Shown piece after piece: positions 1 to 24,377 of a DNA stretch of 64,000 bases. Source of the DNA: Lentisphaeraceae bacterium (lineage in GTDB: Bacteria; Verrucomicrobiota; Kiritimatiellia; RFP12; DVOR01); the NCBI GenBank assembly GCA_004555175.1, contig SFJE01000004.1, forward strand, positions 3,909-67,908, in the 5' to 3' direction. The position numbers and the translations under genes were made by a program. Positions within the stretch are counted from its first letter, which is position 1. Each line of letters begins with the position of its first letter. The notes under the pieces are model-generated. The model was not told where the DNA came from and ran no database searches. It was given only the letters and a program-made list of their open reading frames with translations.

Positions 1-1776
1 TCTGTTGTCGCGCGGCGCTTCCAGCCACCGCCTGCGGAAGTTGCGCAGGGTCAGGCGGGCCAAGCGCCAAAGTGCGCTTGGTGTCAGCGGCTTATCGCGC
101 GGGATCACTTTCTGCCCGATGGGTGCGCCTTTGCGAACGAGGTAGTGGAGGTGCGAGGGATGGTCGTAGTGGCGGAGAGCATCAATCGGCGTTAGGGTGT
201 CGGTGAGGGTGATAGGCAGGTGGTGGCGGTTGGCGAGAAGTTCGTTGAGGGCATAGAAGCCGGCACGTTCGGGATAGCGAATGGGATAGAAGCGCAGCGA
301 GGAGTCTTTCGACAAGAAGAATGCGAAGCTGGAGACAACCGCGACATCGCCGGGGCGGCACTCCTCGGGGAAGTAGGCGATGGTCTGCGCGTTGGCTGCG
401 GCGAGCCAGGTCCGCAGGGCGTTTGGTTCGCGCCCAGCTTGGGGTTGACTATCGGTGAGAAGGGTGGAGAAGATGGCGAGGAGGAGGGTCGCTAGGAGGC
501 CTTTGCGAAGGGGCAGAGGCGGCAGACGTGGCAGCTGGGTGAGCAGTAAGAGGGCGATGAGCGGCAGCGAGGCGGCGTAGCGGCGATAGGTGTAAAGCCA
601 AGGGGGGAGGCACACTGCGGTAAGTAGCAATAAGAGGGCCAAGGCAAGTGGCGCTCGCGACTGGCGGAACTTGCACGCGAAGAGGCCGAGAATGCCGACG
701 AGCGCAAGCCAACTCCAGTTGAAGCAACAGAAGGTGGCGAAGCCTGGGAGGCCATCTTTCACGGCTTGCAATTGGAGGTCTGCGGTAATGTCCCAGCCCT
801 GGAAGGCGGGGAGGAAGGAGTGTGCCGGGAAGAGTGGGCTGCCGTAGAGCACCCAGTTTGTGGCGTAGGGATGGAACCAGCAGAGACCGATTGCCACGGC
901 GGAGAGGACACACAGGCGCAGACGGTCGGGCAGGGCGGCGCGGTGGCTGGGCAGGAGCGCTTGCGCAATTAGGAGCAGGAATCCCAGGGCAATGGGGATG
1001 AGCGCACTCTGCTTGAGGCCGGCCAAGCAGAGTGCCAAGCCGCCATAGAGCCAGTGGAGCCAGCGTGTGCGTTCGCCACAGAGTAGCCGCCAGAGGACCA
1101 TCAACCAGGCGAGCGTGATGAGATAGAGCAGGTTGTCCAGTGGGAAGTGGGCGGGCGGGAGCCTATAGTTGAGCATCAGGGCGAGCACGGTTAGGCCAGC
1201 GCAACGCCACATTCCGCGCCTCCCCTCGCCCAGGGGTGCACATCGGCGCAGGGTGGCCCAGACCCAGATGGCGACGGCCGGCAAGATGAGCAGGACGGCC
1301 CAGTCAAAGCCGGTGAACACGCCGGTGGCCAGGTCGGTGGCGGCGCTCCACTGCGCGCCCAGGAGTGGAAAGCAGAGGGTGTGAAAGGGGCGGAAGGTGC
1401 CGCTGGGCGTGATAGCCAGGGCATCGACAGCCTCGCGCGCACTTTGCAGGACCGGGTTCCAGCCGGCCTCCAAGAGGAGAACCTGCGGGTAGTGATAGTT
1501 GATGTAGTCGTTGGATTGGCCGAGGTAGAAGAAGGTGGAGAGCGGCAAGGTTAGGGCGGCGTAGAGGGCGCAGAGGAGGAGCGCGCGCCAGCGGCCTAGG
1601 CGCCAGGCCGCCCAGGCCGCCACGCCACCGCCCAGAACCCAGGCCGGGAGGAGCCAGTTCTGCCCCACGAGGTAGCCGAGCGAGGGGAGGCAACCGGTTA
1701 TCGCTGGCCACAGCGCCAGCGCAGCCAACCCCTTGAGGGCGGCGCGCCAGGAGTGCAATTCAAATGTCTTTAACAT
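1..1776 (-). CDS. polytopic integral membrane protein with soluble C-terminal domain (partial, runs off window start); possible GT-C-like or Wzy_C-like membrane glycosyltransferase
   Basis: Hand translation of the minus strand from ATG at ~1776 gives an uninterrupted frame to position 1 (>590 aa). The N-terminal ~400 aa have many W/L-rich hydrophobic segments. It is absent from the ORF track, apparently because it lacks a stop inside the window. The ATG lies 5 nt after the GspF stop, so it is operonic. Confidence 0.55.
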   Translation of the reverse strand, partial: MLKTFELHSWRAALKGLAALALWPAITGCLPSLGYLVGQNWLLPAWVLGGGVAAWAAWRLGRWRALLLCALYAALTLPLSTFFYLGQSNDYINYHYPQVLLLEAGWNPVLQSAREAVDALAITPSGTFRPFHTLCFPLLGAQWSAATDLATGVFTGFDWAVLLILPAVAIWVWATLRRCAPLGEGRRGMWRCAGLTVLALMLNYRLPPAHFPLDNLLYLITLAWLMVLWRLLCGERTRWLHWLYGGLALCLAGLKQSALIPIALGFLLLIAQALLPSHRAALPDRLRLCVLSAVAIGLCWFHPYATNWVLYGSPLFPAHSFLPAFQGWDITADLQLQAVKDGLPGFATFCCFNWSWLALVGILGLFACKFRQSRAPLALALLLLLTAVCLPPWLYTYRRYAASLPLIALLLLTQLPRLPPLPLRKGLLATLLLAIFSTLLTDSQPQAGREPNALRTWLAAANAQTIAYFPEECRPGDVAVVSSFAFFLSKDSSLRFYPIRYPERAGFYALNELLANRHHLPITLTDTLTPIDALRHYDHPSHLHYLVRKGAPIGQKVIPRDKPLTPSALWRLARLTLRNFRRRWLEAPRDNR

Positions 1777-1781
1777 AATGC

Positions 1782-2867
1782 TTAACCGCCAACGACGGTG
1801 CCGAGCTTGAAGATGGGCATGAACATACCGATGACGATGGTACCGATGACCGCGCCGAGGAAGACCATGAGGAAGGGCTCGAGGAGGGAGGTGAGGGTGG
1901 CGAGGAGGGTCTCGACCTCTTCGTCGTAGGAGTCGGCGATGTTCGAGAGCATCTCGTCAATGCGGCCGCTCTTCTCGCCGGCGGCAATCATGCGGAGCAT
2001 CAGGATGGGCATAAAGGGCTTGCCTTCCATCGAGGCGGCGAGGGTGTTGCCCTGCTCGACCTCGCCCTTAGCCTTCATAATGGAGGTTTCGAGGACGACA
2101 TTGCCGAGCGATCGCGAGACGATTTCCATCGCCTCGACAATCGGCACGCCGCTGTTGAGCATTTGGGCGAAGAGGCGGCAGAAGCGGCCGATGCCGACCT
2201 TGAGGTTGAGCACGCCGAAGACGGGCATCTTGAGGCGGAAGCGGTCGAAGGCGAAGTGGCCGGCTGGGGTGGTCTTCCACTTCTTGAAGAGGAAGAAGCC
2301 GACCACGGCGCCGATGATCAGGTAGTACCAATAGGCGCGGATGAAGTCGCTCATGTCCATCAGTGCCTGCGTAAGGCCGGGGAGCTCGGCCCCGAAGTCG
2401 CCGAACATATCCACAAAGGTGGGCAGCACGAAGGTGATTAGCGCGCCGGCAATAATCAGGGCCATGCAGAGGACGACCGTGGGGTAGGTGAGGGCCGACT
2501 TCACCTTCCGTGCCAGGCGGGCCGAGGATTGGAGGATCTCGGCCAGACGCGCCAGCACGTCCGCGAACTGACCGCTTCGCTCGCCGGCGGCGACCATATT
2601 GATGTACATATCGTCAAAGACGACCGGGAAGTCCGCCAGCGCCACGGAGAAGGGCTCGCCACTCTCCAAGCGCTCGCGCAACTGCTTGAGCACGGCCTTG
2701 AAGTTAGGGCTTTCGCACTGCTCCTCGAGGGTGGAGAGGGAGGCGAGGACGGACATGCCGGCGCGGAGCATACCGGCAATCTGCCGCGTGAAGGGCACCA
2801 GGTCCTTCTTCCGGATGGCGCTGGCGCCGGCGACTTTGCCCTTGGGCTTGCTGTTGAGTTTGGCCAT
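1782..2867 (-). CDS. type II secretion system F / type IV pilus PilC family inner-membrane platform protein
   Basis: 361 aa with the typical GspF/PilC architecture: two repeated cytoplasmic domains and TM helices (FVLPTFVDMFG; GRIDEMLSNIADSYDEEVE). Confidence 0.85.
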   Translation of the reverse strand: MAKLNSKPKGKVAGASAIRKKDLVPFTRQIAGMLRAGMSVLASLSTLEEQCESPNFKAVLKQLRERLESGEPFSVALADFPVVFDDMYINMVAAGERSGQFADVLARLAEILQSSARLARKVKSALTYPTVVLCMALIIAGALITFVLPTFVDMFGDFGAELPGLTQALMDMSDFIRAYWYYLIIGAVVGFFLFKKWKTTPAGHFAFDRFRLKMPVFGVLNLKVGIGRFCRLFAQMLNSGVPIVEAMEIVSRSLGNVVLETSIMKAKGEVEQGNTLAASMEGKPFMPILMLRMIAAGEKSGRIDEMLSNIADSYDEEVETLLATLTSLLEPFLMVFLGAVIGTIVIGMFMPIFKLGTVVGG

Positions 2868-2891
2868 AATCGTTCTCCTGTGTGCGAGGGG

Positions 2892-4639
<1,748 letters not shown>

Positions 4640-4640
<1 letters not shown>

Positions 4641-5128
4641 TACTCTCTCGCTCCTTTCTTCAGGTGCTTCCAGATGGCCCAGGCGAGCAATAGCGCCACG
4701 GTCAGCCCTAATGCGCCCCAACGCCGCGCCGCCGGCGGCTCCGCCGGACCTCCACGCTCGGTGGCCTCCAACTGCGCATCACTCATCGCGGCAATCTGTG
4801 CATAGGTGGCCTCGTCCTTCATCGGGGCCTTCATCCAAGCATTGACCTGCGCCGGCGTCAACTGCAACAACTTCGCCGCCCACGCATCCGCCTCGGCAAT
4901 TTCTACCGCCTTGGCGACTCGGCGCTCGGCGGTGGCTCTGCGATGTTCGCCGAGCTTGCGCATCGAGGTTTCATAAGTGTACTTGGCGTGGGCTTGGCTG
5001 AGGAGCTCTTCGGGCGTGGGCGGACGTTGAGGCTTGTTGAGTTTGCCAATGGCAATCTCCTCTTCAGCCCGAAGGATGAGGGCGAGCGGTAAGAGCGCAA
5101 GGAGCAGGTTGGCACGGAGGGTATTCAT
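4640..5128 (-). CDS. hypothetical exported/membrane-anchored protein (signal peptide, C-terminal TM)
   Basis: 162 aa with an N-terminal signal-like segment MNTLRANLLLALLPLALILRA and a C-terminal hydrophobic helix. Translationally coupled between the GspK-like gene and GspE. Confidence 0.5.
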
Positions 5129-5134
5129 AGGTAA

Positions 5135-7048
5135 TCAGTCTTCTTGGTTGGGGGCCACTTCGTGCCAAGCGATGAGGCGCGGGCGGTCGATGGTCATCGG
5201 CAGGTAGATGGGGTTCTTGGCATTTTCAAGGCTTTCAGAGCCCAGGCGAATGTCCCAGTTGAAGTTGAAGCCAGTCCAGGTGGAACTGATTTGGTTGCGC
5301 GTGACATAGGCACCATTGATGGTGAGTCCATTACCTGTTTTCATTTGGTCGACGAGGTAACCTGACCCGCCGATGAAGGCGTGGTTGGTGAAGAGTACGC
5401 CGTCGATATGATCGATACGGTCGTTGGCGTAGTAGATATACTTGGACTCAACGCTCGGCTCATAGAACTTGCGGTCTGCCGCGACAATGGTGCGGTTGCC
5501 GTCGGCATCGACATCAATCTGCTCAATGCGCTTTTTCTGCCCGTTGTTTTCCACGCGGAAGTAGTCGCTATTAAAGTTCCCGCCGCCGGGATAACCATTC
5601 ATTGAGTCGGAGACATCCACCGGATATTCGGTGTAACCCTGTGCCTGTAAGAAGGCCTCAAGCATTACCGGGTTGCAGAAATCGGAGTTGGTATTATTCA
5701 CCGGCCCGGCGGTGATGAGGCCTTTGGCGCAGAAGCCAACGAGGTCGGCCTTGTCGCGATTATTAGCCGCGGTGGCGTTGGGGTCGTTCTTTGAGTTCGA
5801 CCAATCGGGGCGATTGACATAGGTGACATTGTCAATGAAGTGGATGTTGCGCCCGGCGTAAATGCACCCTTGGCCTTTGATGTAGCCGCCGATAACCACA
5901 TCACCTTCGATGACCACTGGACCATTGATGACGATGGGATTCTTCTTGGTGCCATACATCACCACACAGCCGGCATCTTGCGCATTGGAAATCCCAGAGG
6001 GGCCGGGATTGTCCTTGGAATAAACAGCGGAAATCGTTTGACGACTTGGATTGAGGGAGTAGTGTCCTGCGCCATCAACATAAAGCGGGTTGTAGGTGAG
6101 CGTGCCGTTTCCCTCGCGGGCGAGAGAACGGTAGGTTTCTAAGTCGCCAATATAGGGGAGTTCAAAGACGGCGGCGTGCTCGTTTCGGGTCACATCGGTG
6201 GTTTCAGGGCCAGCGGCGTAGCCCATTGGCCAGGGGGTTGTGTCGTCAGCCGGAGAGGTTGGGCGGCAAGTGGGCGTCTCGGACTGGCGTGCACGGTAGG
6301 CGGCCAAGGATTCGGATGTAGGCCACGGGGACGCCCAATAAGGGGTAATTGAGCCATCGCCACAGGCGGGCACATCTTGGTTACAGGCTGCTGTTACCGT
6401 GCCATTGATAATGCAGGCCATAAATGGGGCCCATCCAACATTGTTTCCCAGCGAGCAATCGCCATTGAAGTAGGCATTGCCGTTGAGCACGCCACTATAG
6501 AGCTGGCCGCCGTTGTTCACGAAGTAGGCGTAGTCAAAGACCTTGGATTGCTCCACGGACATGCGGAAGGTCTCTTCAATGGCCTTGGTGACCAACTTCC
6601 CCAGGGGCGAGCGCTTGGAGGCGGTGGTTCGAATGGTCATTGCAATGGTGCGTGCGGTGGTGTTAACACTATCAACCTGCGCTTCGTAGGAGATGGCGCA
6701 CCCGGCATTCGGGTCTAGTGTTCGATTGATTTCAATGAGGCTCCGGGCGTTGCTCTCCAGCCAGGTGAGGAGGACCATTGGCGTCTTGCTTCGGTCGGTG
6801 ACATAGTAGTTCCGGAAGCCCTCATAGATGGCGAGTTTGGCGTCTTCGAGGGCGGTTTGGGCGGCGAGGCGGCACTGGGTGGCGGTGATGCTTTCGGCGG
6901 TGAGGCGGGTGCCAAAGTCAACGTAGCTGGCGAGAGTGCCGACGAGCAGGGAGATAATGAGCAGGAAGAGGAGGGCGGTGGGGAAGACGAAGCCAGCGCG
7001 GCGGTTGGCGCGGGGGCGTGGAAGCGTTGGGTTCATAGCGTTCTCCAT
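5135..7048 (-). CDS. large minor-pilin-like protein with GspK/PilX-like N-terminal hydrophobic segment (637 aa)
   Basis: Likely start is MENAMNPT at 7048 or MNPT at 7036; upstream ORF sequence is P/S-rich out-of-context sequence. The N-terminus RRAGFVFPTALLFLLIISLLVGTL resembles the GspK/PilX N-terminal helix. The rest is N/G/T-rich and beta-rich. Lies 16 nt downstream of the pseudopilin gene. Confidence 0.6.
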   Translation of the reverse strand: MENAMNPTLPRPRANRRAGFVFPTALLFLLIISLLVGTLASYVDFGTRLTAESITATQCRLAAQTALEDAKLAIYEGFRNYYVTDRSKTPMVLLTWLESNARSLIEINRTLDPNAGCAISYEAQVDSVNTTARTIAMTIRTTASKRSPLGKLVTKAIEETFRMSVEQSKVFDYAYFVNNGGQLYSGVLNGNAYFNGDCSLGNNVGWAPFMACIINGTVTAACNQDVPACGDGSITPYWASPWPTSESLAAYRARQSETPTCRPTSPADDTTPWPMGYAAGPETTDVTRNEHAAVFELPYIGDLETYRSLAREGNGTLTYNPLYVDGAGHYSLNPSRQTISAVYSKDNPGPSGISNAQDAGCVVMYGTKKNPIVINGPVVIEGDVVIGGYIKGQGCIYAGRNIHFIDNVTYVNRPDWSNSKNDPNATAANNRDKADLVGFCAKGLITAGPVNNTNSDFCNPVMLEAFLQAQGYTEYPVDVSDSMNGYPGGGNFNSDYFRVENNGQKKRIEQIDVDADGNRTIVAADRKFYEPSVESKYIYYANDRIDHIDGVLFTNHAFIGGSGYLVDQMKTGNGLTINGAYVTRNQISSTWTGFNFNWDIRLGSESLENAKNPIYLPMTIDRPRLIAWHEVAPNQED

Positions 7049-14909: not shown

Positions 14910-14950
14910 AGCGGGACTTTCGGGGTGGAACCTTGGGAACAGGAAGCGGC

Positions 14951-14978
14951 GGCAGGGGTTCCGGCCTGCCGCCGTTGA
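14951..14978. other. 10-bp perfect inverted repeat hairpin (cggcggcagg...cctgccgccg) between secretin and pilT genes
   Basis: Seen directly in the sequence. On the minus strand it is followed by ttcctgttcc. Possible intra-operon attenuator or processing site. Confidence 0.35.
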
Positions 14979-17379: not shown

Positions 17380-18026
17380 CGGCGGCCTCCCTTCGCTGCG
17401 GGCATCAGCTCTTTCTTGGTCTTACCCTTGGCAGGCCACTCCACAATCATCTGCACGGCATGGACCTGCGGGTCGTTGGTGGGGATGATGCGCATCGCGG
17501 AGAGGGTGGCCAGCGGATAGGTATCCTCCAGCTTCTCCACGAACTCCATCATCTGGCGGTAGCTGCCCGTGCCGGTGCAGGTGATGAGCTGGCGCGCCTG
17601 CAACTGTTCGGGCACGCCCGCCTTCGGCACCGGCAACATCCGCTGGGAGTGCTCGGCAAACTGCGCGATGGCAAAGCCGGTCTTGTCGGTCAGCGGGTCG
17701 AGCAAGGCCTTGCAGCGCATCGCGTAGGAGTTCAGCAGCGGGGTCAAGTAGCCCTCACCCTCCAACGCCTTCAGCTGTGCCTCAAGTTCCTGCACCGCCT
17801 TATCGGTCAGCGGCTGGCGGCGGACCAACTTCTCCATCGATTCTTGCTTGCCCAGGCGCGCCTGGGCTTCGTTGCGGGCCTGGTCGAGCGCCTCCTGCTG
17901 GCCGGTCACGAGGAACTGCCAGAGCGCGCCGGCCACAAGGATCAATCCCACCGCCACGGCGAAGGCCCGGCGTTTGGAGTTCCCGAAGAACGCGAGCAAC
18001 TGCTCGCCGGTCAAACCCTGGCTCAT
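17376..18026 (-). CDS. PilO-like inner-membrane pilus assembly protein (putative)
   Basis: Single TM (AFAVAVGLILVAGALW), coiled-coil, then periplasmic domain. Start probably MSQGLT at 18026, overlapping the PilN stop. Overlaps the PilP-like start (ATGA). Confidence 0.55.
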   Translation of the reverse strand: MSQGLTGEQLLAFFGNSKRRAFAVAVGLILVAGALWQFLVTGQQEALDQARNEAQARLGKQESMEKLVRRQPLTDKAVQELEAQLKALEGEGYLTPLLNSYAMRCKALLDPLTDKTGFAIAQFAEHSQRMLPVPKAGVPEQLQARQLITCTGTGSYRQMMEFVEKLEDTYPLATLSAMRIIPTNDPQVHAVQMIVEWPAKGKTKKELMPAAKGGRR

Positions 18027-18691
18027 TCGAAGACCCTCCGCTTGAGCGTGCACTCCACATCGAATCGGAAGAACTCCTGGCCGCTGCCGCCCCGGGCATC
18101 CTGTTCCTGGCGGAAGGCACCCTTGGGCACCGTTGCGGTCTCAATCATCTCGCGGAAAGCCGGCGCACGCAGCACCCCCAAGAGCTTATCGAGCGAGGCG
18201 GCATCCAGCGTGCGCCCGGAGAGGCGCAGGCGGACGGACTCCTCCGGCGAGTTCGGCCCAAAGCTCGGCGGCGCCTTCTTGCCCCGTTGGGCGGGCGCAC
18301 CGATGACCTGCGGCGGCGGCTCAACGAGTTCAAGCTGCGTCAGTTGGATGGTTGCTGGGATCTGCTCGGCCAACTTGCGCAGGAAGACGCCATAGCGGGC
18401 GGCACCGTGACGGTAGAGTTCCACCTGTGCCAGCTGCTGCTTGAGCTCCTGCTCGCGCCCGGTGGCCTCGGTGGCGCGCTTGAAGGCGGCCTGCAACTGG
18501 GAGATTGCCTCGTCGGCTGCACGCGTCTGACTTTGGGCCATCAGCGTCTGCGTCCACAGCCAGGCCCACCAGAGCGCCACACCCGCCACCACGACGGCGG
18601 CGAAGACCGGCGCCATCACATGCAAGCGCACGCGGCTGGAGGAGACGCGCTCCTCATCGCGCAAGAGATTTAGGTGAATGGCATTATTCAT
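18023..18691 (-). CDS. PilN-like inner-membrane pilus assembly protein
   Basis: Start MNNAIHLNLLRDEER follows a GGAGG RBS at 18691. The conserved PilN N-terminal INLLP-like motif is followed by a single TM (VFAAVVVAGVALWWAWLW). Overlaps the PilM stop by 8 nt. Confidence 0.65.
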   Translation of the reverse strand: MNNAIHLNLLRDEERVSSSRVRLHVMAPVFAAVVVAGVALWWAWLWTQTLMAQSQTRAADEAISQLQAAFKRATEATGREQELKQQLAQVELYRHGAARYGVFLRKLAEQIPATIQLTQLELVEPPPQVIGAPAQRGKKAPPSFGPNSPEESVRLRLSGRTLDAASLDKLLGVLRAPAFREMIETATVPKGAFRQEQDARGGSGQEFFRFDVECTLKRRVFE

Positions 18692-19697
18692 CGCGGGCCT
18701 CCTCCAGAACGGCGAGGGCGCCGCCGATGGCCGGCCACAGCGCAGCCTCCTCTTCGGCCGAGGCCGGGGTGGCGGTGCGCGGCTTGGCAAAACCGGCGAG
18801 CGGAGTCGGGGCCGCGAGCGTCAGCGCGCTGCCCGAGCGTTCGGCCACGGTGAGCCACAGGGGGGCCAAGTGCGCGGGCACGCCAAAGAGCAACCCGCAG
18901 GTGGGGGCCCCTTCAAAGCGCTGGGCCACATAGTCCACCGCCAGGCCAATCTGCCGGAAGAGCGGCTGGAGGACCGGCTCAAGGAGCGGCAGGGGGTCGA
19001 CCAACTGCTCTTCAATCATGCTCTGCAGCAGCGCCGGTTCGATGCCTAGCCCCGACGCGAGCGCTTGGGTGACGGTCTCGTTGCCAAGGGCTTGCTCGCG
19101 CACCAGCACCGGGCGGTTCTGCTGATAGGCCATCAGGAGCGTACGCTGCGCTTCAACGATGAGCACCACAGCCGTGCCGCCGGCGCGCTCAAACTCCGGC
19201 ACCGCCAAGGGTGCATTCAAGAGCGCGGCCTGGGCCACTTGAATGGAGCAGGCGGTGGGCTGGTGCCCCTCCGGGAGCAAGCGCGAGAGCCAGAGCACCT
19301 GATACTCGGGCAACGAAGCTTCCAGACAGAGATCCGGCGGCATCGCCAACTTCACCGCCTGGCGCTGACCATTGACGGCCTGCGCTTGGGCATCGGCTGC
19401 CGGGGCTTGACGCTGCGTCAGGCGCAGCACCGCCTCCGGCGCGGTGGCCACGAGGGCCGCGTGGGGCGACTGAAAGGGTGGGGGCAGGGACCAGGTGATA
19501 GCCTTGCGAGCGTTCTCCCAATCGGCGGGTAGGGCCCCGGGGAGGTCGATCACGGCGGCGGCGAGGAGTTCGCGCTTGCCGCCCTTGGTCTGCAGCCGCA
19601 CGGCGGCCACCTTCCCTTCGGGCAAGTGCCCGAGGGCGAGGCCGACAACATCGGTGGGTGTGCGGCGCTTGAGGAGGTTGGGTTTTGCCTTGGCCAT
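18684..19697 (-). CDS. PilM-like actin-fold pilus assembly protein (putative)
   Basis: Start MAKAKPNLLKRR at 19697 follows an AGGAAG RBS; upstream track ORF sequence is out of context. ~337 aa cytoplasmic protein at the pilM position, directly upstream of PilN/O/P/secretin. Confidence 0.55.
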   Translation of the reverse strand: MAKAKPNLLKRRTPTDVVGLALGHLPEGKVAAVRLQTKGGKRELLAAAVIDLPGALPADWENARKAITWSLPPPFQSPHAALVATAPEAVLRLTQRQAPAADAQAQAVNGQRQAVKLAMPPDLCLEASLPEYQVLWLSRLLPEGHQPTACSIQVAQAALLNAPLAVPEFERAGGTAVVLIVEAQRTLLMAYQQNRPVLVREQALGNETVTQALASGLGIEPALLQSMIEEQLVDPLPLLEPVLQPLFRQIGLAVDYVAQRFEGAPTCGLLFGVPAHLAPLWLTVAERSGSALTLAAPTPLAGFAKPRTATPASAEEEAALWPAIGGALAVLEEARDE

Positions 19698-19701: not shown

Positions 19702-22212
19702 TTACTTCCTTGCCGAGGTGGGCGAGAGGCGCACGCCAAAGACCTTGTAGGTCTTGCCGCCGTGGACGTTGCGGAAGGGGGCCGAGGTGATGAGCCCATT
19801 GCGGTAGGGCGTGCCCGGCGGGATTTCGGCCAAGACGGCCCACTGCGGGGCGCTGGCATCGGGCTTGGCGAGGATTTGGATGTAGCCATTGGGCGCGGCA
19901 CCGAGCGTGCCCATGCCATCGAAGGGCTCGACCATCACCGTGGCCTCAATGCGGTTATTACCCACGCGCCGCACCTCAGCCACGCCGAAGTTGCAGAGAT
20001 ACTGGGCCGAGATGGCTCCCCCAATCAGCGAAGCCTGCGGCCGCAGATTAAGCAGATAGGCCACATTGACCGCCTGTCCGGCATCCATCTCCGGCGTTTC
20101 GGAGGTGGAGCCCTCGAGGGTCAGGCGCAAATCGCCAGCGGCGGAGCGCCCGCGCAAGGCGGCGGCCGTTACGAAGCTGAGTGCTTCGGGGCTCGGCTTG
20201 ACGGTGGCCTCGGAGCCATCGGGGTTGAGGAGCTTGATGTTGAGGTTGCCCATCGCCACGGCATAGGGCACATTGAGCGAGAGGGTGTTGCCCTCCAGCA
20301 CCAGCTCGCAGCCCTCGGGAATATCAGAGCCCATTAAGAAGTCATCGTCCGAGAGGGTGTCCGAGCAGACCTGCCAGGTGAGGATGGGGTTCTTGCCGCC
20401 CTTCATCCCGGTGGGATTGCCGGTAATAATGAGGCTCGAGCCGTGCTGCATTGCCAAGAGCGAGAGGCTTGTCACCTTCCCCGGGGCAATCTCCAACTGT
20501 GCGCCATCCAAGAAGATGCAGCTGCCAGTCACCTTCCCGCCGCCGGCGAGCGTGCCGCCCTTGGCCACAATCAGGTTGCCCGTGCTGCGGATGGTCTGGG
20601 CCTTCAACACCGCATCGCCCTCAATCTGGAGCGACTGCAGCGGCGCAATCGTCAGCTCTTGGGCCTGATGGAGACCATTGGTCAGGCGCACCGGCGCCTG
20701 CACCGTGAAGTTCCGGGAGAAGCTGCCGCCGCTCATCTCCACATTGCCGCCATTGACCAGCAGATCTAGCGGCTTGTTTGGAGAACCCAGCGTGGCGTCC
20801 ACCTTTAGCCCCGAGAGGTGCGGCACCACCCACTTCGTCTGCCCGGTGGGGTCAGCCGTCCGCCCGAGGGTGAGCAAGGGGGCCTCCTGCTGGGTCCAGA
20901 TGCGCCCAGCCACCGTGCCAGTGGCGGCCAGCGTGGTGGGACCGGTCATCTCGATGGCGCTCTCGAGCGTGGCACCAGACTCAATGCGCAGGGCGCCAAA
21001 GCCCTCGCGGTTCAGCTCGCCGCCGCCACTTACGCCAATTTGCGGCGCATCAAAGGCGCCCTGGCCCACCACATAGAGCTGCACGCCCGGGGAGAGAACC
21101 AGCCGCGCCTCGGGGCCGAGCAAAAGCCCGTTGCTGCGTAGCTTCTTCCCGGCGCCTTGGCGCGTGGCATCATCCACCACCACCACCTCGCCCTCAAAGG
21201 TCTGCGCGTTGAGCGTGACCGTAAGGTCAGAGAAGGGGCAGCTAATCTCGATGCGCCCGTGGCCATCAATGGTCAGCGGCTTGGGGTTCCCTGCCTGCGC
21301 CGGCTGAATCCGCAAGGTGCCGCCCTTGAGCGTATGCTGCCACTCCGGGAGCGGCCCCTGCTTGGGCGCCAAGACGCACGAGCCATCAGGAGCGGCTGCC
21401 GGGAGCTCTACGGAAGGCTTTGCCTTCGCCGGTTCGGCCTCCCGCTCGGCCACAGTGGCCTTCACCACCGGCTTGCCTGCCGGCGGGGTTGCGGAAGTTC
21501 CAGACCAGGCGCAGACCTCATCCAGCCGCTCGTAGAGCCCCGGTTTGACGCCCGAGGCTGCGCCGTCACCGTCGCGCCCCGTACCGAGCACCAATTCTGT
21601 CAGCCTGTCATCGGGTCCGTGCTCGGCCGGGACCTTAAGCCGCTCGACTTCGGTGCCGTCAACAAACAGCACGAAGCTCTCATCCATGTAACAAAGGCGA
21701 ATATCGTACCACTGCTCGAGCTCGAGCTTGTTCTTCTCGTGCCAACGGGTCATCCCCTGCACGAGGTTCTGGCCGGCGTTGCGAAAGAGGGCCATCGTGA
21801 TGGGGTTGTTGCTCTTGGGCTCGGCCACCTGCTCGAGGCGGTAGTTGTGCTTGCCAAAGCGAAACCCAAGGATTGGGCGCCAACGCATCCGGCTGCGCGG
21901 CCGCAGACGGAAGGCAATCGTCCACCCCTCCTTCGCCCGCAGCCCTTCAATGCCACTAACCACCCCATAGCGCGTTCCCTGCGCGTTGGAAAAGACCTCT
22001 AGCGCGCTCACCCCCAGTTCATCCATCGAAGGCTTGACCGCCTTCCCCGCCTGCGGACCTTGCAGGACGAAGCTGAGCTTCGGCTTGCCAGACTCCGAGA
22101 CCACCTGATCCACTGCCCCTGGATTGAATGAACATCGCACAGCCACTTCGGCCGGCAGCAACCCTGCCAGCCCCACGGCCAACGCTAAGAAAATCTGTTG
22201 GTCAATCTGCAT
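19702..22212 (-). CDS. large secreted protein (836 aa) with N-terminal LamG/concanavalin-like region and Gly/Thr-rich beta-helix-like repeats; first gene of the pilM-secretin operon
   Basis: Signal peptide MQIDQQIFLALAVGLAGLLPAEVA. A WTIAFRLRP...LCYMDESFVLFVDGTEVERL LamG-like block. Long G/T/L-rich repeats (GGTLAGGGKVTGS). Ends 5 nt before the PilM-like start. Confidence 0.6.
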   Translation of the reverse strand: MQIDQQIFLALAVGLAGLLPAEVAVRCSFNPGAVDQVVSESGKPKLSFVLQGPQAGKAVKPSMDELGVSALEVFSNAQGTRYGVVSGIEGLRAKEGWTIAFRLRPRSRMRWRPILGFRFGKHNYRLEQVAEPKSNNPITMALFRNAGQNLVQGMTRWHEKNKLELEQWYDIRLCYMDESFVLFVDGTEVERLKVPAEHGPDDRLTELVLGTGRDGDGAASGVKPGLYERLDEVCAWSGTSATPPAGKPVVKATVAEREAEPAKAKPSVELPAAAPDGSCVLAPKQGPLPEWQHTLKGGTLRIQPAQAGNPKPLTIDGHGRIEISCPFSDLTVTLNAQTFEGEVVVVDDATRQGAGKKLRSNGLLLGPEARLVLSPGVQLYVVGQGAFDAPQIGVSGGGELNREGFGALRIESGATLESAIEMTGPTTLAATGTVAGRIWTQQEAPLLTLGRTADPTGQTKWVVPHLSGLKVDATLGSPNKPLDLLVNGGNVEMSGGSFSRNFTVQAPVRLTNGLHQAQELTIAPLQSLQIEGDAVLKAQTIRSTGNLIVAKGGTLAGGGKVTGSCIFLDGAQLEIAPGKVTSLSLLAMQHGSSLIITGNPTGMKGGKNPILTWQVCSDTLSDDDFLMGSDIPEGCELVLEGNTLSLNVPYAVAMGNLNIKLLNPDGSEATVKPSPEALSFVTAAALRGRSAAGDLRLTLEGSTSETPEMDAGQAVNVAYLLNLRPQASLIGGAISAQYLCNFGVAEVRRVGNNRIEATVMVEPFDGMGTLGAAPNGYIQILAKPDASAPQWAVLAEIPPGTPYRNGLITSAPFRNVHGGKTYKVFGVRLSPTSARK

Positions 22213-22236: not shown

Positions 22237-22252
22237 TGCAAACTTCGTGCCA
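22237..22252 (-). promoter_or_regulatory. sigma-54 (RpoN) promoter, -24/-12 elements TGGCACG-aagt-TTGCA, upstream of the 19702-22212 operon
   Basis: Reverse complement of 22231-22260 reads gcgcggtTTGGCACGAAGTTTGCAtagaaa, an exact match to consensus TGGCACG-N4-TTGCW. An AGGAG RBS and ATG at 22212 lie ~20 nt downstream. Confidence 0.8.
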
Positions 22253-22261
22253 AACCGCGCA

Positions 22262-22416
22262 CCTACGGTGCTTGGTTAGCGGACAGCCGACAGCGGACAG
22301 CTGACAGCGCTGGCGCTCGATGTGCAAAACCCGTCTGAGCCGTGAGCGCAACACGATAGGCCGGCGGTTTGTCCGTCGCGTTAGCGGCTGTCCGCTGTCG
22401 GCTGTCCGCTGTCCGC
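22262..22416. repeat. ~150-bp composite element: 4x CNGACAG heptamers, conserved core, 4x CTGTCNG heptamers (inverted); copy A
   Basis: Left arm cggacagccgacagcggacagctgacag (22280-22307). Right arm ctgtccgctgtcggctgtccgctgtccg (22388-22415). Core blocks cagcgctggcgctcga, cccgtctgagccgtga and tccgtcgcgttagcggctgtc are shared with copy B at 31861-32000. Confidence 0.8.
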
Positions 22417-23237
22417 TAGAGGTTAAAAAGGCTATCCTCAAAGCCGCCGTCGTCGGAGGGGGTGGCGGGGGGATCGGCGGTGGGCTCGAGGGCGTGGGCC
22501 ACCGCTTCGCTCAGCCCATCGATGGGGGCGATGGGGGAATCTTGCTCAAAGAGCGAGACAATCTCATCGGCGTGGTTGGCCGTCTTGCGATACTGCTCGG
22601 TGGCGTAGTGGCGCTTCTCGTTGAGCTTTTGGAGGAGATCGCGGATTTCGATGGCCGCCTCGTAGCACATCTCGGTCATCTCCTTGCGCCCGGCCTCGTC
22701 CACCAGATTTAGGCGCATCATCTCCACGCTACTCATCAGCACGGTCATCGGCTGACCAATCGCATGGCAGATGGTGCCAAAGCTCTCCATCATCACGCGC
22801 TGACGCTCCCGCTCGCGCTCCAGGCGCACATCCTGCCACATTGCCGCCGCATCGCGCAAGACAATGACCGCCCAGCGTGGCGGCTGCCCCTGCGCGCCCA
22901 TCTCTTTGGGGGTGGCATTGACTTCCAGCGTCACCTTGGGCTGGGTGAGCTCGGCGGGTTTGGGCGCCTGCCACAACTTCCCGGCGCGCAAGGCTTCCAT
23001 CATCGGCGCAATCCACGCCGGGTTTGGGAACCAGCGCGTGAGCGGCGCCCCCACCGGCAGGCCCCCCTCTGGCTGCGGAAAGAGTTCGCGCCAGACGCTA
23101 TTGGCGTAGAGCAATGGCCCCTCCGGGCTCGTTAATTCGATTACGCAGACGGCCACATTTGCGCGTTCAAGCCCCACATCGAGCATCTCATAGTAGGTTG
23201 CCGGCGGCTTGGGCCGGTCAAATCCAAAGGACATCAT
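22416..23237 (-). CDS. PAS-like + HisKA-like domain protein lacking an HATPase_c domain
   Basis: 273 aa. RERERQRVMMESFGTICHAIGQPMTVLMSSVEMMRL resembles a histidine-kinase H-box dimerisation domain. No N/G1/G2 ATP-binding boxes follow; the C-terminus is an acidic tail. Confidence 0.5.
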   Translation of the reverse strand: MMSFGFDRPKPPATYYEMLDVGLERANVAVCVIELTSPEGPLLYANSVWRELFPQPEGGLPVGAPLTRWFPNPAWIAPMMEALRAGKLWQAPKPAELTQPKVTLEVNATPKEMGAQGQPPRWAVIVLRDAAAMWQDVRLERERERQRVMMESFGTICHAIGQPMTVLMSSVEMMRLNLVDEAGRKEMTEMCYEAAIEIRDLLQKLNEKRHYATEQYRKTANHADEIVSLFEQDSPIAPIDGLSEAVAHALEPTADPPATPSDDGGFEDSLFNL

Positions 23238-23722
23238 ACCCCTTCCTCCTCGTCAACTTCAAGCCATACTTCGTCTAATGTTTCTTCTTCTTCTTCGGCG
23301 GCGGCTTCAGCCGCCTGCGCTTCGGCCAACTCCCGAGCCTGCTGCGCCTCCAACTGCCGGTAGAGTTCTAGGGCAACTGGCCGCTCTCGCGGTAAATCCC
23401 CTTGGTCACTTACCAGCGAGCAGGTTACCGGCCGCCCGGGGTCCCCGAGCGTATAGACCCCACCATTGGGGCATGGGGGCAATTGCCCCGCGTGCAAGAG
23501 CCGCGAGAGGGCATCGTCTCCAAACATCTCCGCCTGTCGCTTGGCCATCGAGAGCTCCCAGCGCTTCATCACGCACCGCTCCCGCGCCTCTTCCGTCCGA
23601 ATCCGGCCGGCCTGCTCCCAACTCCAATAGCCCCCCAACGCCCCCATCACCCCGATAAAAGAAAGCGGCAGCCACCAAGTCCGCGGCCAAATCTGCTGCG
23701 TCTGTGCTGCCGTTTCGGACAT
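23234..23722 (-). CDS. hypothetical small membrane-anchored protein with acidic C-terminus
   Basis: 162 aa with one N-terminal TM (WWLPLSFIGVMGALGGYW) and C-terminal EEEEETLDEVWLEVDEEEGV. Stop overlaps the downstream start (ATGA). Confidence 0.45.
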   Translation of the reverse strand: MSETAAQTQQIWPRTWWLPLSFIGVMGALGGYWSWEQAGRIRTEEARERCVMKRWELSMAKRQAEMFGDDALSRLLHAGQLPPCPNGGVYTLGDPGRPVTCSLVSDQGDLPRERPVALELYRQLEAQQARELAEAQAAEAAAEEEEETLDEVWLEVDEEEGV

Positions 23723-23737
23723 TGCTGCCCCTTCCGA

Positions 23738-23772: not shown

Positions 23773-23799
23773 CTTCCCAAAGGAGTTCAATCGGGAAGA

Positions 23800-24156
23800 T
23801 TAGTTGGTCGCATCTTCAGGGAGGACGTGGCCCTTCGGACATGAGGTCTTATAGCGGCCGGTGCCATCATCGGCTGGCATCGTATAGGAGCTGTTAGCGT
23901 CAGACGGGCATCTCATCTTGCTGATGGAGATCTTAAGATACTGATTCAGGTGGGTAGCGTCCACGGCTTCCCCATTAATCAAGCACTGCTCAGCAGCGGC
24001 TTCAATCTGCTTCATATTGGCAATGCAGGCGTTCTTCTGGGAGGTCTGCCTAGAGCGGACGAAGTTCGGGACGGCGATGGCGGCGAGGATGCCGATGATC
24101 GCGACCACGATCATAATTTCAACGAGCGTGAAGCCCTGCTTCAACTGCTTATTCAT
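23800..24156 (-). CDS. type IVa major pilin (PilA-like; prepilin with short leader and C-terminal disulfide loop)
   Basis: True start MNKQLKQ|GFTLVEIMIVVAIIGILAAIAVPNF is a classic class III signal with a 7-aa leader. Mature length ~111 aa. Two C-terminal Cys (CPSDANSSYTMPADDGTGRYKTSCP). The ORF in the track extends upstream to 24342 through out-of-context sequence. Confidence 0.85.
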   Translation of the reverse strand: MNKQLKQGFTLVEIMIVVAIIGILAAIAVPNFVRSRQTSQKNACIANMKQIEAAAEQCLINGEAVDATHLNQYLKISISKMRCPSDANSSYTMPADDGTGRYKTSCPKGHVLPEDATN

Positions 24157-24230
24157 TGTGCGAGTACCTTTCTGTACGGTAGCGTGACTATCGAACTGAC
24201 TTGGCACACGCCAAGCTGTCTTTCCTCCTT

Positions 24231-24246
24231 TGCAATGGGCGTGCCA
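24231..24246 (-). promoter_or_regulatory. sigma-54 promoter TGGCACG-ccca-TTGCA driving the pilin gene
   Basis: Reverse complement of 24226-24250 reads gatTTGGCACGCCCATTGCAaaggag. An AT-rich tract (24250-24350, candidate IHF bend) and palindromic repeats (24378-24457) lie upstream, as in enhancer-dependent promoters. Confidence 0.8.
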
Positions 24247-24377
24247 AATCAGGAAGGGCGGGAACTTTTTTGCGCTTCGCTCAAAAGCAGTCTCCCGATT
24301 TCTCATTCCTGTAAAGAGGTTTCTTAGTTTTAAGAATGGCAATTCTCGGGAATGAGAAAAATCCCTTCTCGAAATGG

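Follow-up and report, generated by a model that had tools for sequence, protein, structure and literature searches.

A 24-kb gene cluster probably encoding a divergent, retractile type IVa pilus in an uncultured gut Kiritimatiellia bacterium

Results

A probable type IVa pilus cluster on the minus strand

The 24-kb gene cluster described here comes from an uncultured gut member of the Kiritimatiellia (Candidatus Spyradenecus) and probably encodes a type IVa pilus machine able to retract. About 20 co-directional genes occupy positions 1-24246 of the window (the whole 64-kb stretch of DNA that was analysed); the open reading frame list and a separate gene call made on the source contig gave the same set. 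All coordinates below are window positions, and all the features are on the minus strand. The cluster is flanked by housekeeping genes, and the gene call on the source contig places divergent housekeeping genes after its last gene. All the genes named in the initial annotation were present in the order proposed there, from position 1 to approximately 24250 on the minus strand; its list had skipped two genes between the pilin and the LamG gene (encoding a 162-aa protein and a 273-aa PAS and HisKA-like protein), as well as another 162-aa gene, located between those of the large pilin and PilB. Its reading of the machine as lineage-specific, resembling a type IVa pilus and having a sigma-54 two-component regulator of its own, is supported by the PilM fold, the PilN and PilO profiles, the PilB- and PilT-type ATPases, the sigma-54 promoters and the spread of PilM. 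Profile searches of the open reading frames matched the pilin, secretin, PilT, PilB/GspE and PilC/GspF to family models. The machine had also been called complete: the core parts were found, but the prepilin peptidase (PilD) was absent from the cluster and from the rest of the 64-kb window.

The LamG-pilMNOP-secretin operon

The first gene of this operon (19702..22212) encodes a secreted 836-aa LamG-domain protein with an N-terminal hydrophobic signal, a Laminin_G_3 score just below the cutoff (27.2 against 27.6 bits) and no PDB sequence match; homologues were found in only 9 loci, those of the genus plus one other. None of the four alignment proteins encoded next reaches a Pfam or NCBIfam cutoff, PilN giving sub-threshold matches only. 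The sequence of the 337-aa protein (18684..19697) has no match in Pfam, NCBIfam or PDB; its AlphaFold2 model (pLDDT 83.7) retrieved with Foldseek a top 10 of PDB entries that were all PilM (5eou, 2ych, 3jc8_Ma; best E 2.7e-14), and the modelled fold confirms it as the cytoplasmic, actin-like PilM. Profile-profile comparison likewise confirmed the assignments of the 222-aa protein (18023..18691) to PilN and of the 216-aa protein (17376..18026) to PilO, each predicted to have one N-terminal membrane helix. PilN carries an N-terminal HLNLL..E motif that varies little or not at all among 46 homologues; its profile ranked M. xanthus PilN first in PDB (E 0.0057) and aligned with Neisseria/Aeromonas PilN in hhalign (probability 86.5%, E 4.6e-6, 145 columns). 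The PilO profile matched M. xanthus PilO (1e-6) and P. aeruginosa PilO (0.0075) in PDB and PilO in hhalign (probability 92.3%, E 5.5e-7), and of 44 homologues, 27 match Pfam PilO and 32 match T2SSM. The membrane topology of PilM, PilN and PilO is consistent with their roles. These three initial calls stand, by fold for PilM and by profile for the other two, and the 158-aa protein (16903..17379) is PilP-like by position only: it has a signal peptide, an RDPFWP motif, a Pro-rich linker and a small C-terminal beta domain, and its place is always between PilO and the secretin (69 of 80 loci), with no PilP signal in Pfam, in a profile search of PDB or in hhalign (probability 7.7%).

The outer-membrane secretin (PilQ-like, 596 aa, 15098..16888; Secretin 2.2e-30, Secretin_N 5e-8) has PilQ as its best NCBIfam model (TIGR02515, 159 bits, below cutoff) and scores 127 bits with GspD. 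Between the secretin and PilT genes, a terminator-like GC-rich hairpin (14947..14974; 10-pair stem with 9 G-C, the strongest of the scan) suggests a transcription-unit boundary.

ATPases, platform and terminal membrane protein

The 491-aa retraction ATPase PilT (13434..14909) scored 457 bits against the 319-bit cutoff of TIGR01420 over residues 4-345, followed by a C-terminal coiled-coil/TPR extension of about 145 aa (TPR_1/TPR_2 at 433-463); the median length of its homologues is also 491 aa, and PilT recurs near the cluster in relatives. The next gene encodes a stand-alone 298-aa protein combining TPR and MshEN (GspE N-terminal-like) domains (12516..13412; MshEN 1.8e-8, TPR_19 3.4e-5), which is kept in 20 loci and heads the minor-pilin operon in distant relatives. 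The 582-aa extension ATPase of the PilB/GspE type (2892..4640; T2SSE 3.5e-133) has an MshEN N-domain (3.9e-11), a Walker A motif and a tetracysteine motif (CPVC and CPKC), and the 361-aa PilC/GspF platform protein (1782..2867) has two T2SSF repeats (1.4e-62). PilB scored 593 bits with the PilB model (TIGR02538) and 555 with GspE, both below cutoff, and PilC scored 340 bits with GspF and 337 with PilC; because the secretin, PilB and PilC reach neither the type IVa nor the type II curated cutoffs, these three proteins cannot separate the two systems. The last gene of the cluster (1..1776) encodes a 592-aa polytopic membrane protein with at least 6 hydrophobic segments and no Pfam or PDB match; it reaches the window edge, its stop codon lying just past the window start according to the gene call on the source contig.

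Major, minor and tip pilins

The 118-aa major pilin precursor (23800..24156) has a class III signal motif with an 8-residue leader (MNKQLKQG / FTLVEIM), and matches N_methyl in Pfam (E 5.5e-9) and both TIGR02532 and the PilA/ComGC/GspG N-terminal models in NCBIfam. The neighbouring 162-aa protein (23234..23722), with a weakly hydrophobic N-terminal stretch and an acidic C-terminus, has no Pfam or NCBIfam match and no hydrophobic window at the cutoff of the membrane-segment scan; it is genus-restricted, with homologues in 8 loci only.

Of the three pseudopilins initially proposed, two have a canonical class III signal: a 168-aa minor pilin (7863..8369; G/FTLIE, weak N_methyl match, E 0.005), and another called at 236 aa (7065..7775; G/MTLLE at residue 68). 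The latter open reading frame probably starts too far upstream, the real product being some 170-196 aa: homologues align only from residue 67, the orthologue of the relative at 68% identity has 196 aa, and the first 60 or so codons hold repeat-like intergenic elements. The third (5135..7036; 633 aa by the gene call, not the 637 first given) has a GspK/PilX-type N-terminus without Glu5. Its AlphaFold2 model (pLDDT 88, pTM 0.86) consists of a long N-terminal helix and a pilin sheet bearing a large beta-solenoid, and Thermus ComZ is its sole significant match in PDB (6qvi; E 1.6e-4, probability 0.99, with a low TM-score of 0.23-0.28). Given this model and match, 'ComZ/PilX-type tip pilin with a beta-solenoid' fits the protein better than 'GspK-like'. 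ComZ is a DNA-binding, competence-essential tip pilin whose pilin domain is closest to GspK (PMC6561018), and the cyanobacterial beta-solenoid PilX pilins have been proposed as a general tip plug of motility and competence pili alike (bioRxiv 10.64898/2026.02.12.705559), so the fold does not specify DNA binding. The 633-aa protein has 263 homologues at E <= 0.001; among the 120 matches listed there is no Pfam domain, and the few named ones are 'hypothetical'. Between this gene and PilB lies the gene of another 162-aa protein (4640..5128), with an N-terminal signal-like hydrophobic segment and no family match in Pfam or NCBIfam; a 160-aa gene holds this position in the 68% relative.

Sigma-54 promoters and regulators

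Exactly 2 perfect sigma-54 promoters were found in the 64 kb, against 0.10 expected, and both are on the coding strand in the two long intergenic gaps of the cluster. The -24/-12 promoter of the pilin gene, TGGCACGCCCATTGCA (24231..24246), is 75 nt upstream of the pilin ATG; the element is also present 5' of the pilin in 18 related loci and is invariant in alignment A6. The promoter of the LamG-pilMNOP-secretin operon, TGGCACGAAGTTTGCA (22237..22252), is 25 nt upstream of the LamG start, with equivalent sites in relatives 5' of LamG (4 loci) or PilM (15 loci). Related loci totalling 1.16 Mb contain 42 perfect sites, 37 of which are 22-76 nt upstream of pilin, PilM or LamG, and a relaxed motif precedes 30/44 pilin and 36/76 PilM genes (compared with 1.1% of random windows).

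A candidate activator-binding site lies about 55-115 nt upstream of the pilin promoter: a perfect 11-nt inverted repeat, TTTCTCATTCC ... GGAATGAGAAA (24299..24359), that the activator may bind. Its TTCTCA/TGAGAA elements are kept in relatives down to 68% protein identity, and the palindrome TTCKCR...YGMGAA is found 5' of 24/44 pilin genes compared with 4% of random 300-nt windows. The second promoter is preceded by a candidate enhancer, a pair of inverted GCNGACA heptad arrays with a 78-nt spacer between them (22277..22418; 32-nt arms, 91% complementary), kept within the genus and absent from the 68% relative. As the upstream repeats of the two promoters differ, one activator may not serve both.

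The cluster encodes a 462-aa sigma-54-dependent response regulator of NtrC/PilR architecture (8386..9774; Response_reg (REC) 2.3e-31, Sigma54_activat 2.6e-69, HTH_8 3.2e-10; Asp53, GAFTGA at 222), which adjoins the cluster in 47 of 80 loci with 54-58% identity, and a 902-aa hybrid sensor histidine kinase (9783..12491), whose two membrane helices enclose a periplasmic domain of about 245 aa and are followed by PAS, HisKA, HATPase_c and a Response_reg receiver, with no Hpt domain (Pfam, NCBIfam). The 273-aa PAS and HisKA-like (DHp) protein (22416..23237) has no ATPase domain and an invariant His158 in ES..CHxxGQPxTVL; its profile matches PAS sensors in PDB (2.4e-14), and HisKA is sub-threshold in the family, yet in register in 11/14 and 18/20 members. 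The DHp core (41-49% identity across the class) occurs either as a protein of its own, about 120 aa long, or in a fusion with one or two PAS domains, and the protein neighbours the cluster in 43/80 loci. The rpoN gene for sigma-54 (47317..48792; Sigma54_AID, Sigma54_CBD and Sigma54_DBD, all above cutoff) is outside the cluster, 23 kb away in the same window. The predicted promoters would require rpoN, and the cluster appears to be switched on by sigma-54.

Conservation

Members of the PilM family were detected in 76 genomes, which mostly carry the label Kiritimatiellia or the name of a related PVC group (Lentisphaerae, Verrucomicrobia). The synteny comparison showed the PilM-N-O-P-secretin order in nearly all of the 80 loci, with the activator, pilin and DHp protein recurring alongside. 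The Candidatus Spyradenecus host itself is an uncultured gut bacterium known from metagenomes only.

Discussion

Taken as a type IVa pilus, the machine would work as follows. A prepilin peptidase encoded elsewhere would process the 118-aa prepilin, which the PilB ATPase would polymerise on the PilC platform; the fibre would run inside a PilM-PilN-PilO complex, possibly including the PilP-like protein, and leave through the PilQ-type secretin. The two small minor pilins and the 633-aa pilin would prime the fibre, the beta-solenoid capping its tip, probably as an adhesin or DNA receptor, and the TPR-tailed PilT would retract it. The NtrC/PilR-type activator and RpoN would fire the two promoters, the first driving the pilin gene and the second the LamG-pilMNOP-secretin operon. 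The hybrid kinase would be the signal source; speculatively, the PAS-DHp protein might relay its signal as a histidine phosphotransfer step, a role we offer only tentatively.

It is improbable that the cluster is a type II secretion system, or that its pilus machine serves mainly for secretion; on that reading a short pseudopilus, built from the small pilin of GspG size, would drive folded exoproteins such as the LamG protein out through the secretin. The secretin operon does open with the gene of that secreted protein, but while the machine spans the class, this gene is limited to the genus and a single locus beyond it. The near-equal scores of PilB and PilC on the GspE and GspF models, the pilin N-terminus matching GspG as well as PilA and ComGC, and the T2SSM matches of 32/44 PilO homologues would suit secretion; against them, the secretin scores higher as PilQ than as GspD, PilM and PilN are two proteins, not fused as in GspL, and GspC was not found. 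PilT, which type II systems are not known to have, is above its curated cutoff and recurrent near the cluster in relatives. In favour of secretion, the minor pilins also resemble the GspH-K set, and the ComZ pilin domain is closest to GspK (PMC6561018).

Specialisation of the type IVa machine for natural transformation, as in Thermus thermophilus, is a doubtful though conceivable refinement, in which DNA outside the cell would bind to the beta-solenoid of the tip pilin and be drawn through the secretin as PilT retracts the fibre. Two observations count in its favour: the ATPase is accompanied by proteins with MshEN domains, and small minor pilins precede the large pilin in an order resembling that of the Thermus minor-pilin locus. 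So does the one significant structural match of the 633-aa pilin, to ComZ, a competence-essential, DNA-binding tip pilin (PMC6561018), but the beta-solenoid PilX of cyanobacteria is proposed as a general tip plug (bioRxiv 10.64898/2026.02.12.705559). For the two lysines that have been linked to DNA binding by ComZ, positions in the 633-aa pilin could not be assigned, and no ComEA, ComEC or DprA genes were seen within the 64-kb window.

A Tad/Flp, type IVb or conjugative mating-pair pilus is effectively refuted by the ATPase model scores, the PilM fold and the PilN and PilO profiles. As any member of this superfamily would be expected to, the ATPases match the TraJ, DotB, TrbB, VirB11 and TadA models weakly, as secondary hits; their best models are PilT (457 bits, where TraJ reaches no more than 158) and PilB (593 bits, where TadA reaches 51), which identify ATPases of the PilB and PilT type. 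The pilin leader is of the short, 8-residue, type IVa kind; the cluster has PilM, PilN and PilO; no domains of a relaxase, coupling protein, RcpA, TadB or TadC were detected; and the flanks are housekeeping genes.

Of the three features initially thought to set the cluster apart from textbook type IVa loci, two are ordinary: the pairing of PilB with PilT is standard for type IVa pili, and regulators inside the cluster are shared with Myxococcus xanthus, whose pilS/pilR lie inside a single 17-gene pil cluster (PMC6060248). The unusual, class-conserved features are the ATPase-less histidine-kinase-like protein, the TPR-tailed PilT and the separate TPR-MshEN protein. The pilus cluster is a highly divergent, lineage-specific form of a well-known machine rather than a new kind of system.

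Gene content and order of the pilus cluster

The first 24.2 kb of the window contain about 20 ORFs, all of them on the minus strand. In the order of transcription they encode: the major pilin (118 aa); a 162-aa protein; a PAS + HisKA-like protein (273 aa; 22416-23237), referred to here as the DHp protein; a LamG protein (836 aa), for which a PDB sequence search gave no match; the PilM-like (337 aa), PilN-like (222 aa), PilO-like (216 aa) and PilP-like (158 aa) proteins; the secretin (596 aa); PilT (491 aa); a TPR+MshEN protein (298 aa); a hybrid histidine kinase (902 aa); a sigma-54 activator (462 aa); two small minor pilins (168 aa, and 236 aa as called); a pilin-like protein of 633 aa (5135-7036); a second 162-aa protein; PilB/GspE (582 aa) and PilC/GspF (361 aa); and a 592-aa polytopic membrane protein that ends at the window edge (1-1776; also locus L081:11092-12870). 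The public gene call of the source contig (ENA ERZ27309572 k141_69187, 83 kb), used as an independent gene set, agrees with these ORFs; both uphold the coordinates and gene order of the initial annotation, in which every gene named exists and three small genes were left out.

The 592-aa membrane protein follows PilC after a gap of 5 nt and has a soluble C-terminal part. Family and PDB sequence searches returned no match for it, and the related loci retrieved, many of which do not reach beyond PilC, yielded no homologue; one guess is that it might be a pilin-modifying glycosyltransferase.

Upstream of the cluster, beyond 24.3 kb, the genes are unrelated and of polyketide/fatty-acid type: a 1102-aa protein, in which polyketide-dehydratase and phosphopantetheinyl-transferase domains are combined, and a ketosynthase of 466 aa adjoin it (25030-29735, minus strand). 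This flank is variable, the same position being taken by other lipid/polyketide-type genes (FkbH, ACP, KAS III) in a related locus with 68% protein identity (the 68% relative). Downstream of the cluster, the contig carries divergent housekeeping genes. The window also encodes a C10 (streptopain-like, with TSP3 repeats) and a C25 (gingipain-like) cysteine peptidase, both large (34486-36690, plus strand; 49460-52249, minus strand), and, between them, a 942-aa ORF without Pfam match (36752-39580, minus strand), which are possible secreted host- or mucin-directed factors; and three clustered tRNA genes (Val-TAC, Leu-CAA and Gly-TCC; 57275-57539, minus strand).

Pilins, ATPases, platform protein and secretin

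Standard family models confirmed the TPR+MshEN protein and matched the pilin, secretin, PilB/GspE, PilC/GspF, PilT, kinase and activator as they had been named in the initial annotation. Of these parts, PilT alone exceeds the curated cutoff of an equivalog or subfamily model (TIGR01420, 457 bits vs. a cutoff of 319), and it ends in a conserved TPR tail of about 145 aa. The extension ATPase is of the PilB type (T2SSE, 3.5e-133); a PilB model is its best NCBIfam match, yet the score lies under the equivalog cutoff, and both PilB and the PilC platform protein (T2SSF, 1.4e-62) score nearly equally on type IV and type II models. The secretin has Secretin and Secretin_N domains, with one detectable N-domain and no AMIN domain detected, and PilQ is its best NCBIfam model, with a score under the cutoff of that model.

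The major pilin has the short leader of class III (MNKQLKQG/FTLVEIM, with Gly-1, Phe+1 and Glu+5; N_methyl, 5.5e-9). The minor pilin set consists of two small class III pilins and one large ComZ-like pilin; the usual set is four or five. The 236-aa minor pilin has a 68-residue 'leader' (7600-7775, minus strand) made of repeat-element sequence that is not conserved among its homologues, for which reason its start codon was probably mis-called; no ATG, GTG or TTG yields a normal short leader. The TPR+MshEN protein stands alone here, and in distant relatives it is co-oriented with the minor pilins and directly precedes them.

A scan for the GxGDxK motif and Pfam scans found no prepilin peptidase PilD (Peptidase_A24) in the cluster or elsewhere in the 64-kb window. 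The enzyme could be encoded elsewhere in the genome; since the window is without it, the initial description of the machine as complete is not borne out.

Identification of PilM, PilN, PilO and a PilP-like protein

None of the four alignment-complex candidates reaches a Pfam or NCBIfam cutoff (0/4): PilM, PilO and the PilP-like protein have no Pfam match whatsoever, and PilN gives sub-threshold matches only (Pfam PilN, E 0.006; NCBIfam model of the PilM-like Amuc_1101, E 0.0012, 17.7 vs. a 650-bit cutoff). A single-sequence search of PDB sequences returned nothing for the PilM-like and PilO-like proteins. The hydrophobicity profiles of all four agree with the roles assigned.

PilM was recognised by its fold. 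An AlphaFold2 model built with 32 homologues (pLDDT 83.7) has as its ten best PDB matches only PilM proteins, from P. aeruginosa, T. thermophilus and M. xanthus (best E 2.7e-14; 2ych among the top matches), with FtsA next; the model points to a cytoplasmic actin-like PilM encoded separately from PilN. For PilN and PilO, the best matches in profile searches of the PDB were the M. xanthus proteins of the same name (PilO, 1e-6, and P. aeruginosa PilO, 0.0075), and hhalign comparisons with Neisseria/Aeromonas references, taken from chromosomes contained in a plasmid collection, agreed (PilN: probability 86.5%, E 4.6e-6, 145 columns starting at residue 1; PilO: 92.3%, E 5.5e-7). In addition, Pfam PilO is matched by 27 of 44 PilO homologues, and the N-terminal HLNLL..E motif of PilN, equivalent to the peptide bound by PilM in known systems, is invariant or nearly so in the alignment of 46 sequences. 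Each of the two proteins has one N-terminal membrane helix, and a bitopic PilN and a bitopic PilO are predicted.

The 158-aa protein is PilP-like by position only, always lying between PilO and the secretin. Its recognisable elements are a signal peptide, an RDPFWP motif, a linker rich in proline and a small beta domain at the C-terminus, and the residues ahead of its Cys (L-P-L-C) read unlike a typical lipoprotein signal. Searches for its identity with Pfam (46 close and 66 distant homologues) and two PDB profile searches were negative or insignificant, hhalign against Neisseria/Aeromonas PilP gave a probability of 7.7%, and a profile search of 1.84 billion proteins collected 856 relatives (representative clusters) without an annotated link. 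The C-terminal beta domain occurs as 11-12 tandem copies in two giant proteins of the representative library (P0252, 1259 aa; P0260, 2635 aa), and for this reason it may be a generic small module. Of the initial PilM/N/O/P calls, PilM thus stands by fold and PilN and PilO by profile-profile comparison, which answers the concern that these ORFs might be unrelated proteins; the PilP call did not find such support.

Distribution and synteny of the locus

A MAG bearing the name Candidatus Spyradenecus sp. encodes a protein 97% identical to the PilM-like one. When one genome per species was scanned, PilM relatives were found in 76 loci, mostly in MAGs labelled Kiritimatiellia/Kiritimatiellae, Lentisphaerae/Lentisphaeraceae, Verrucomicrobia or 'uncultured bacterium' and for the most part from guts and rumens; a few bins bear unrelated names (Clostridium, Lachnospiraceae, Limosilactobacillus). 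Only 32 protein clusters matched PilM in a search of 5.8 billion sequences, none of them with a PilM-type Pfam domain and one with an unrelated family (PF09546).

A tblastn matrix of 80 related loci has PilM-N-O-P-secretin as its invariant core. The sigma-54 activator, the pilin, the HisKA-like protein and PilT recur beside this core (in 47, 46, 43 and 35 loci, respectively); the LamG protein and the first 162-aa protein are limited to the genus, with LamG found in one other locus. The full gene order is unchanged in the 68% relative, and in distant relatives the same parts are distributed over divergent operons.

A large beta-solenoid pilin related to ComZ

The 633-aa pilin has 263 homologues at E <= 0.001; among the matches listed, none of 120 homologues has a Pfam domain, and the few that are named are 'hypothetical'. 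The structural model (pLDDT 88, pTM 0.86) has a very long N-terminal helix (residues 17-80), a pilin-type sheet (114-163), a mostly beta region up to residue 610 forming a large beta-solenoid, and last strands at 614-627; that the solenoid is inserted into the pilin fold was deduced from the order of these secondary-structure elements, not from superposition. The only significant PDB match is Thermus thermophilus ComZ (E 1.6e-4, probability 0.99), at a sequence identity of about 9% and a low TM-score.

ComZ is a competence-essential pilin with a beta-solenoid inserted into the pilin fold; its pilin domain is nearest to GspK, its bulk leaves the pilus tip as the sole possible place, and it binds DNA (Salleh et al., PMC6561018). 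The PilX pilins of cyanobacteria share the architecture of pilin plus beta-solenoid, and a 2026 preprint proposes that the solenoid is a tip plug in place of PilY1 (bioRxiv 10.64898/2026.02.12.705559). No PilY1 was found in the pilus cluster. Given the ComZ match and the ComZ/PilX architecture, the initial label 'GspK-like' was roughly right, and 'ComZ/PilX-type beta-solenoid tip pilin' is more exact.

Predicted sigma-54 promoters of the pilin gene and the machine operon

Exactly two matches to the consensus TGGCAC-N5-TTGCW were found in the 64 kb, where 0.10 would be expected (two sites were reached in only 1 of 100 shuffles). Each of these perfect sites occupies one of the two long gaps between genes in the cluster's upstream half and lies on the coding strand. 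The first (24231-24246, minus strand) precedes the pilin ATG by 75 nt; the second (22237-22252, minus strand) is 25 nt ahead of the start of LamG, the first gene of the LamG-pilMNOP-secretin operon. Among the related loci (1.16 Mb) there are 42 perfect sites, 37 of them placed 22-76 nt upstream of pilin (18), PilM (15) or LamG (4) genes, and a slightly relaxed motif precedes 30 of 44 pilin genes and 36 of 76 PilM genes, compared with 1.1% of random 300-nt windows. The activator has the NtrC-family layout (receiver, sigma-54 AAA+ and HTH), with receiver Asp53 and GAFTGA, and is predicted to act at the sigma-54 promoter upstream of the pilin gene. That sigma-54 and PilR govern the pilin gene is a classical theme (M. 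xanthus pilA depends on both); for pilMNOPQ, a sigma-54 promoter is, to our knowledge, not usual. An rpoN gene encoding all three Pfam domains (47317-48792, minus strand) lies 23 kb from the cluster whose promoters need sigma-54.

Two kinds of candidate activator site were found: a TTCKCR...YGMGAA palindrome upstream of 24 of 44 pilin genes (4% background), and, within the genus only, a pair of GCNGACA heptad arrays, inverted relative to each other, ahead of the LamG promoter. In the window the TTCTCA...TGAGAA repeats lie at 24299-24359 and the heptad arrays at 22277-22418. Because these upstream elements differ, the two promoters may not share one activator. Three GGCCCTACCTCGAGG repeats spaced by 22 bp upstream of the pilin promoter were rejected as activator sites: a relative with 97% identity (L005) lacks them, and further copies occur between other genes, at about 7.7 kb and 63.2 kb. 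They are better explained as copies of a dispersed palindromic repeat, GGCCCTACCTCGAGG(N)GGGGTAGGCCC, which is intergenic and often tandem at 22-bp spacing (24381-24456, about 7690-7760, and 63235-63271); its core 15-mer has 6 matches at <=2 mismatches, compared with 0.47 expected. Since it is present in some close relatives and missing at the same place in another, the repeat behaves as a REP-type element, not as a regulatory one.

A strong hairpin 3' of the secretin gene suggests that PilT starts a third transcription unit. A sigma-54-like site with one mismatch (TGGCAGGGAACTTGCT; 12655-12670, minus strand) falls inside the TPR+MshEN coding sequence, about 165 nt ahead of the kinase start; it may be a chance match or an internal promoter from which the kinase and activator are transcribed. 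The 5' leader of the pilin gene (24157-24225, minus strand) is nearly invariant even in the 68% relative; it contains a perfect hairpin (CTTGGC-GTGT-GCCAAG, 24200-24215) near the point where the transcript is predicted to begin, as well as a GTACAGAAAGGTAC palindrome that covers the ribosome-binding site, and may be an mRNA-stabilising or translational control element.

A hybrid kinase and an ATPase-less DHp protein

The kinase has two membrane helices flanking a periplasmic domain of about 245 aa and a C-terminal receiver, in which it departs from PilS-type kinases (polytopic sensors without a receiver); it has no Hpt domain. The DHp protein consists of a PAS domain (profile vs. PDB, 2.4e-14) followed by a helical region with an invariant ES..CHxxGQPxTVL box; this box aligns in register with the HisKA phospho-acceptor region, at sub-threshold scores, in 11 of 14 and 18 of 20 members. 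No HATPase_c domain was found in the protein. Since BLASTP detected no significant similarity between the two, the DHp protein is not a recent copy of the hybrid kinase; a PDB profile search with the DHp-only family returned no Spo0B, ChpT or kinase match. Across the class the DHp core takes three forms: stand-alone (about 120 aa), fused to one PAS domain, as here, and fused to two. Between distant clades in the sampled loci it retains 41-49% identity, compared with about 30-35% for PilM, PilN and PilO over the same distances.

As the hybrid kinase has a receiver but no Hpt domain, a relay from the kinase through the DHp protein to the activator is attractive. The ATPase-less DHp protein (about 120 aa with an invariant His, His158 here, alone or with one or two PAS domains) would then be a conserved regulatory component with no described counterpart in type IV pilus systems, serving as the histidine phosphotransfer step by which both the pilin gene and the pilMNOP-secretin operon are turned on. 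We consider this proposal rather improbable as a whole; if true, the entire machine, beyond the pilin, would be built on demand via the relay. An anti-kinase or phosphatase role of the DHp protein would be equally possible. The DHp protein is the least ordinary element of the locus.

Discussion

The locus is a genuine type IVa pilus cluster, rightly recognised in the initial annotation, and is best classed as a variant, specific to its lineage, of a machine already known. It shares with type II secretion systems (GspC-M, GspD) the ATPase, the platform, the secretin, the GspM/PilO superfamily and pseudopilin-like minor pilins, and the nearly equal scores of PilB and PilC on the two sets of models leave these parts neutral. 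The assignment to type IVa comes from PilT above its cutoff, recurring near the clusters of relatives, from separate PilM and PilN genes, from the short-leader pilin and from a secretin that scores best on PilQ; no GspC was found, and no GspC/GspL model matched any protein of the cluster. A secretion role is a less probable reading of the machine and not the parsimonious one, and a Tad or conjugative origin is excluded by the ATPase model scores.

Two features that the initial annotation regarded as setting the locus apart turn out to be ordinary: PilB with PilT is the standard type IVa motor pair, and regulators inside the structural cluster have a precedent in M. xanthus, where pilS and pilR are among 17 pil genes of one cluster (PMC6060248). 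The M. xanthus locus also unites, like this one, the pilin, PilB, PilT, PilC, PilM-N-O-P-Q and a histidine kinase/sigma-54 activator pair (PMC6060248), and supplies the closest profiles for PilN and PilO. Compared with it, the present cluster is without PilD, PilGHI and a Tgl/PilF pilotin; its kinase is a hybrid with a receiver, accompanied by the ATPase-less PAS-DHp protein; a sigma-54 promoter is also placed on pilMNOP-secretin; PilT is TPR-tailed; the tip pilin is ComZ-like, with no PilY1 seen; and PilM, PilO and the PilP-like protein have no Pfam match, with PilN sub-threshold. The features that really differ are therefore PilM, PilO and PilP-like proteins invisible to standard models, together with a weakly detected PilN; the TPR tail of PilT; the stand-alone TPR+MshEN protein; the hybrid kinase with a DHp-only protein; and sigma-54 promoters on both the pilin gene and the machine operon.

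Other known systems resemble parts of the locus. Thermus thermophilus (ComZ, PilA1-4, PilF, PilMNOWQ) has a large pilin with a beta-solenoid encoded after smaller minor pilins, MshEN/GspE-N domains tied to the assembly ATPase, and PilM, PilN and PilO whose folds and profiles agree with those described here; in Thermus, however, MshEN is repeated inside the ATPase, whereas here the extra MshEN is in a separate TPR protein. We know of no sigma-54 regulation or hybrid-kinase module in Thermus. The cyanobacterial PilX, likened to the tip pilin by description, combines pilin fold and bulky beta-solenoid in hosts without PilY1 (bioRxiv 10.64898/2026.02.12.705559). Within the PVC group, Amuc_1098-Amuc_1102 of Akkermansia muciniphila has the gene order PilM-like, small envelope proteins, secretin, and is described as a cluster of five genes without ATPases or regulators (PMC5332112). 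The NCBIfam Amuc_1098 (secretin) model matches the secretin weakly (6.4e-18, 64 vs. a 750-bit cutoff), and, as this score and that of PilN on Amuc_1101 are far below the cutoffs, neither protein is a member of the Amuc families; Amuc_1100 was not detected when the PilO profile was compared with the PDB. Among described PVC systems the Akkermansia cluster is the nearest, its relationship going no further than weak model matches far under threshold.

A literature search did not find a paper on the pili of Kiritimatiellia, which are common, almost uncultured polysaccharide degraders of animal guts and sediments. The general understanding of type IV pili is unaltered by this cluster. What it adds is that Kiritimatiellia genomes encode a full retractile pilus machine (PilD being absent from the window), of which PilM, PilO and the PilP-like protein are missed by standard annotation; the alignments made here could seed family models for PilM, PilN, PilO and the PilP-like protein, PilM being present in 76 species-level genomes. 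Two parts merit further study: the DHp-only protein, which is small, well defined and a candidate new signalling component, and the sigma-54-controlled machine operon. The promoter evidence amounts to a testable regulon. The ComZ-like tip pilin, as modelled, hints at DNA uptake or adhesion, functions of interest for gut ecology, to which the LamG protein may be relevant too.
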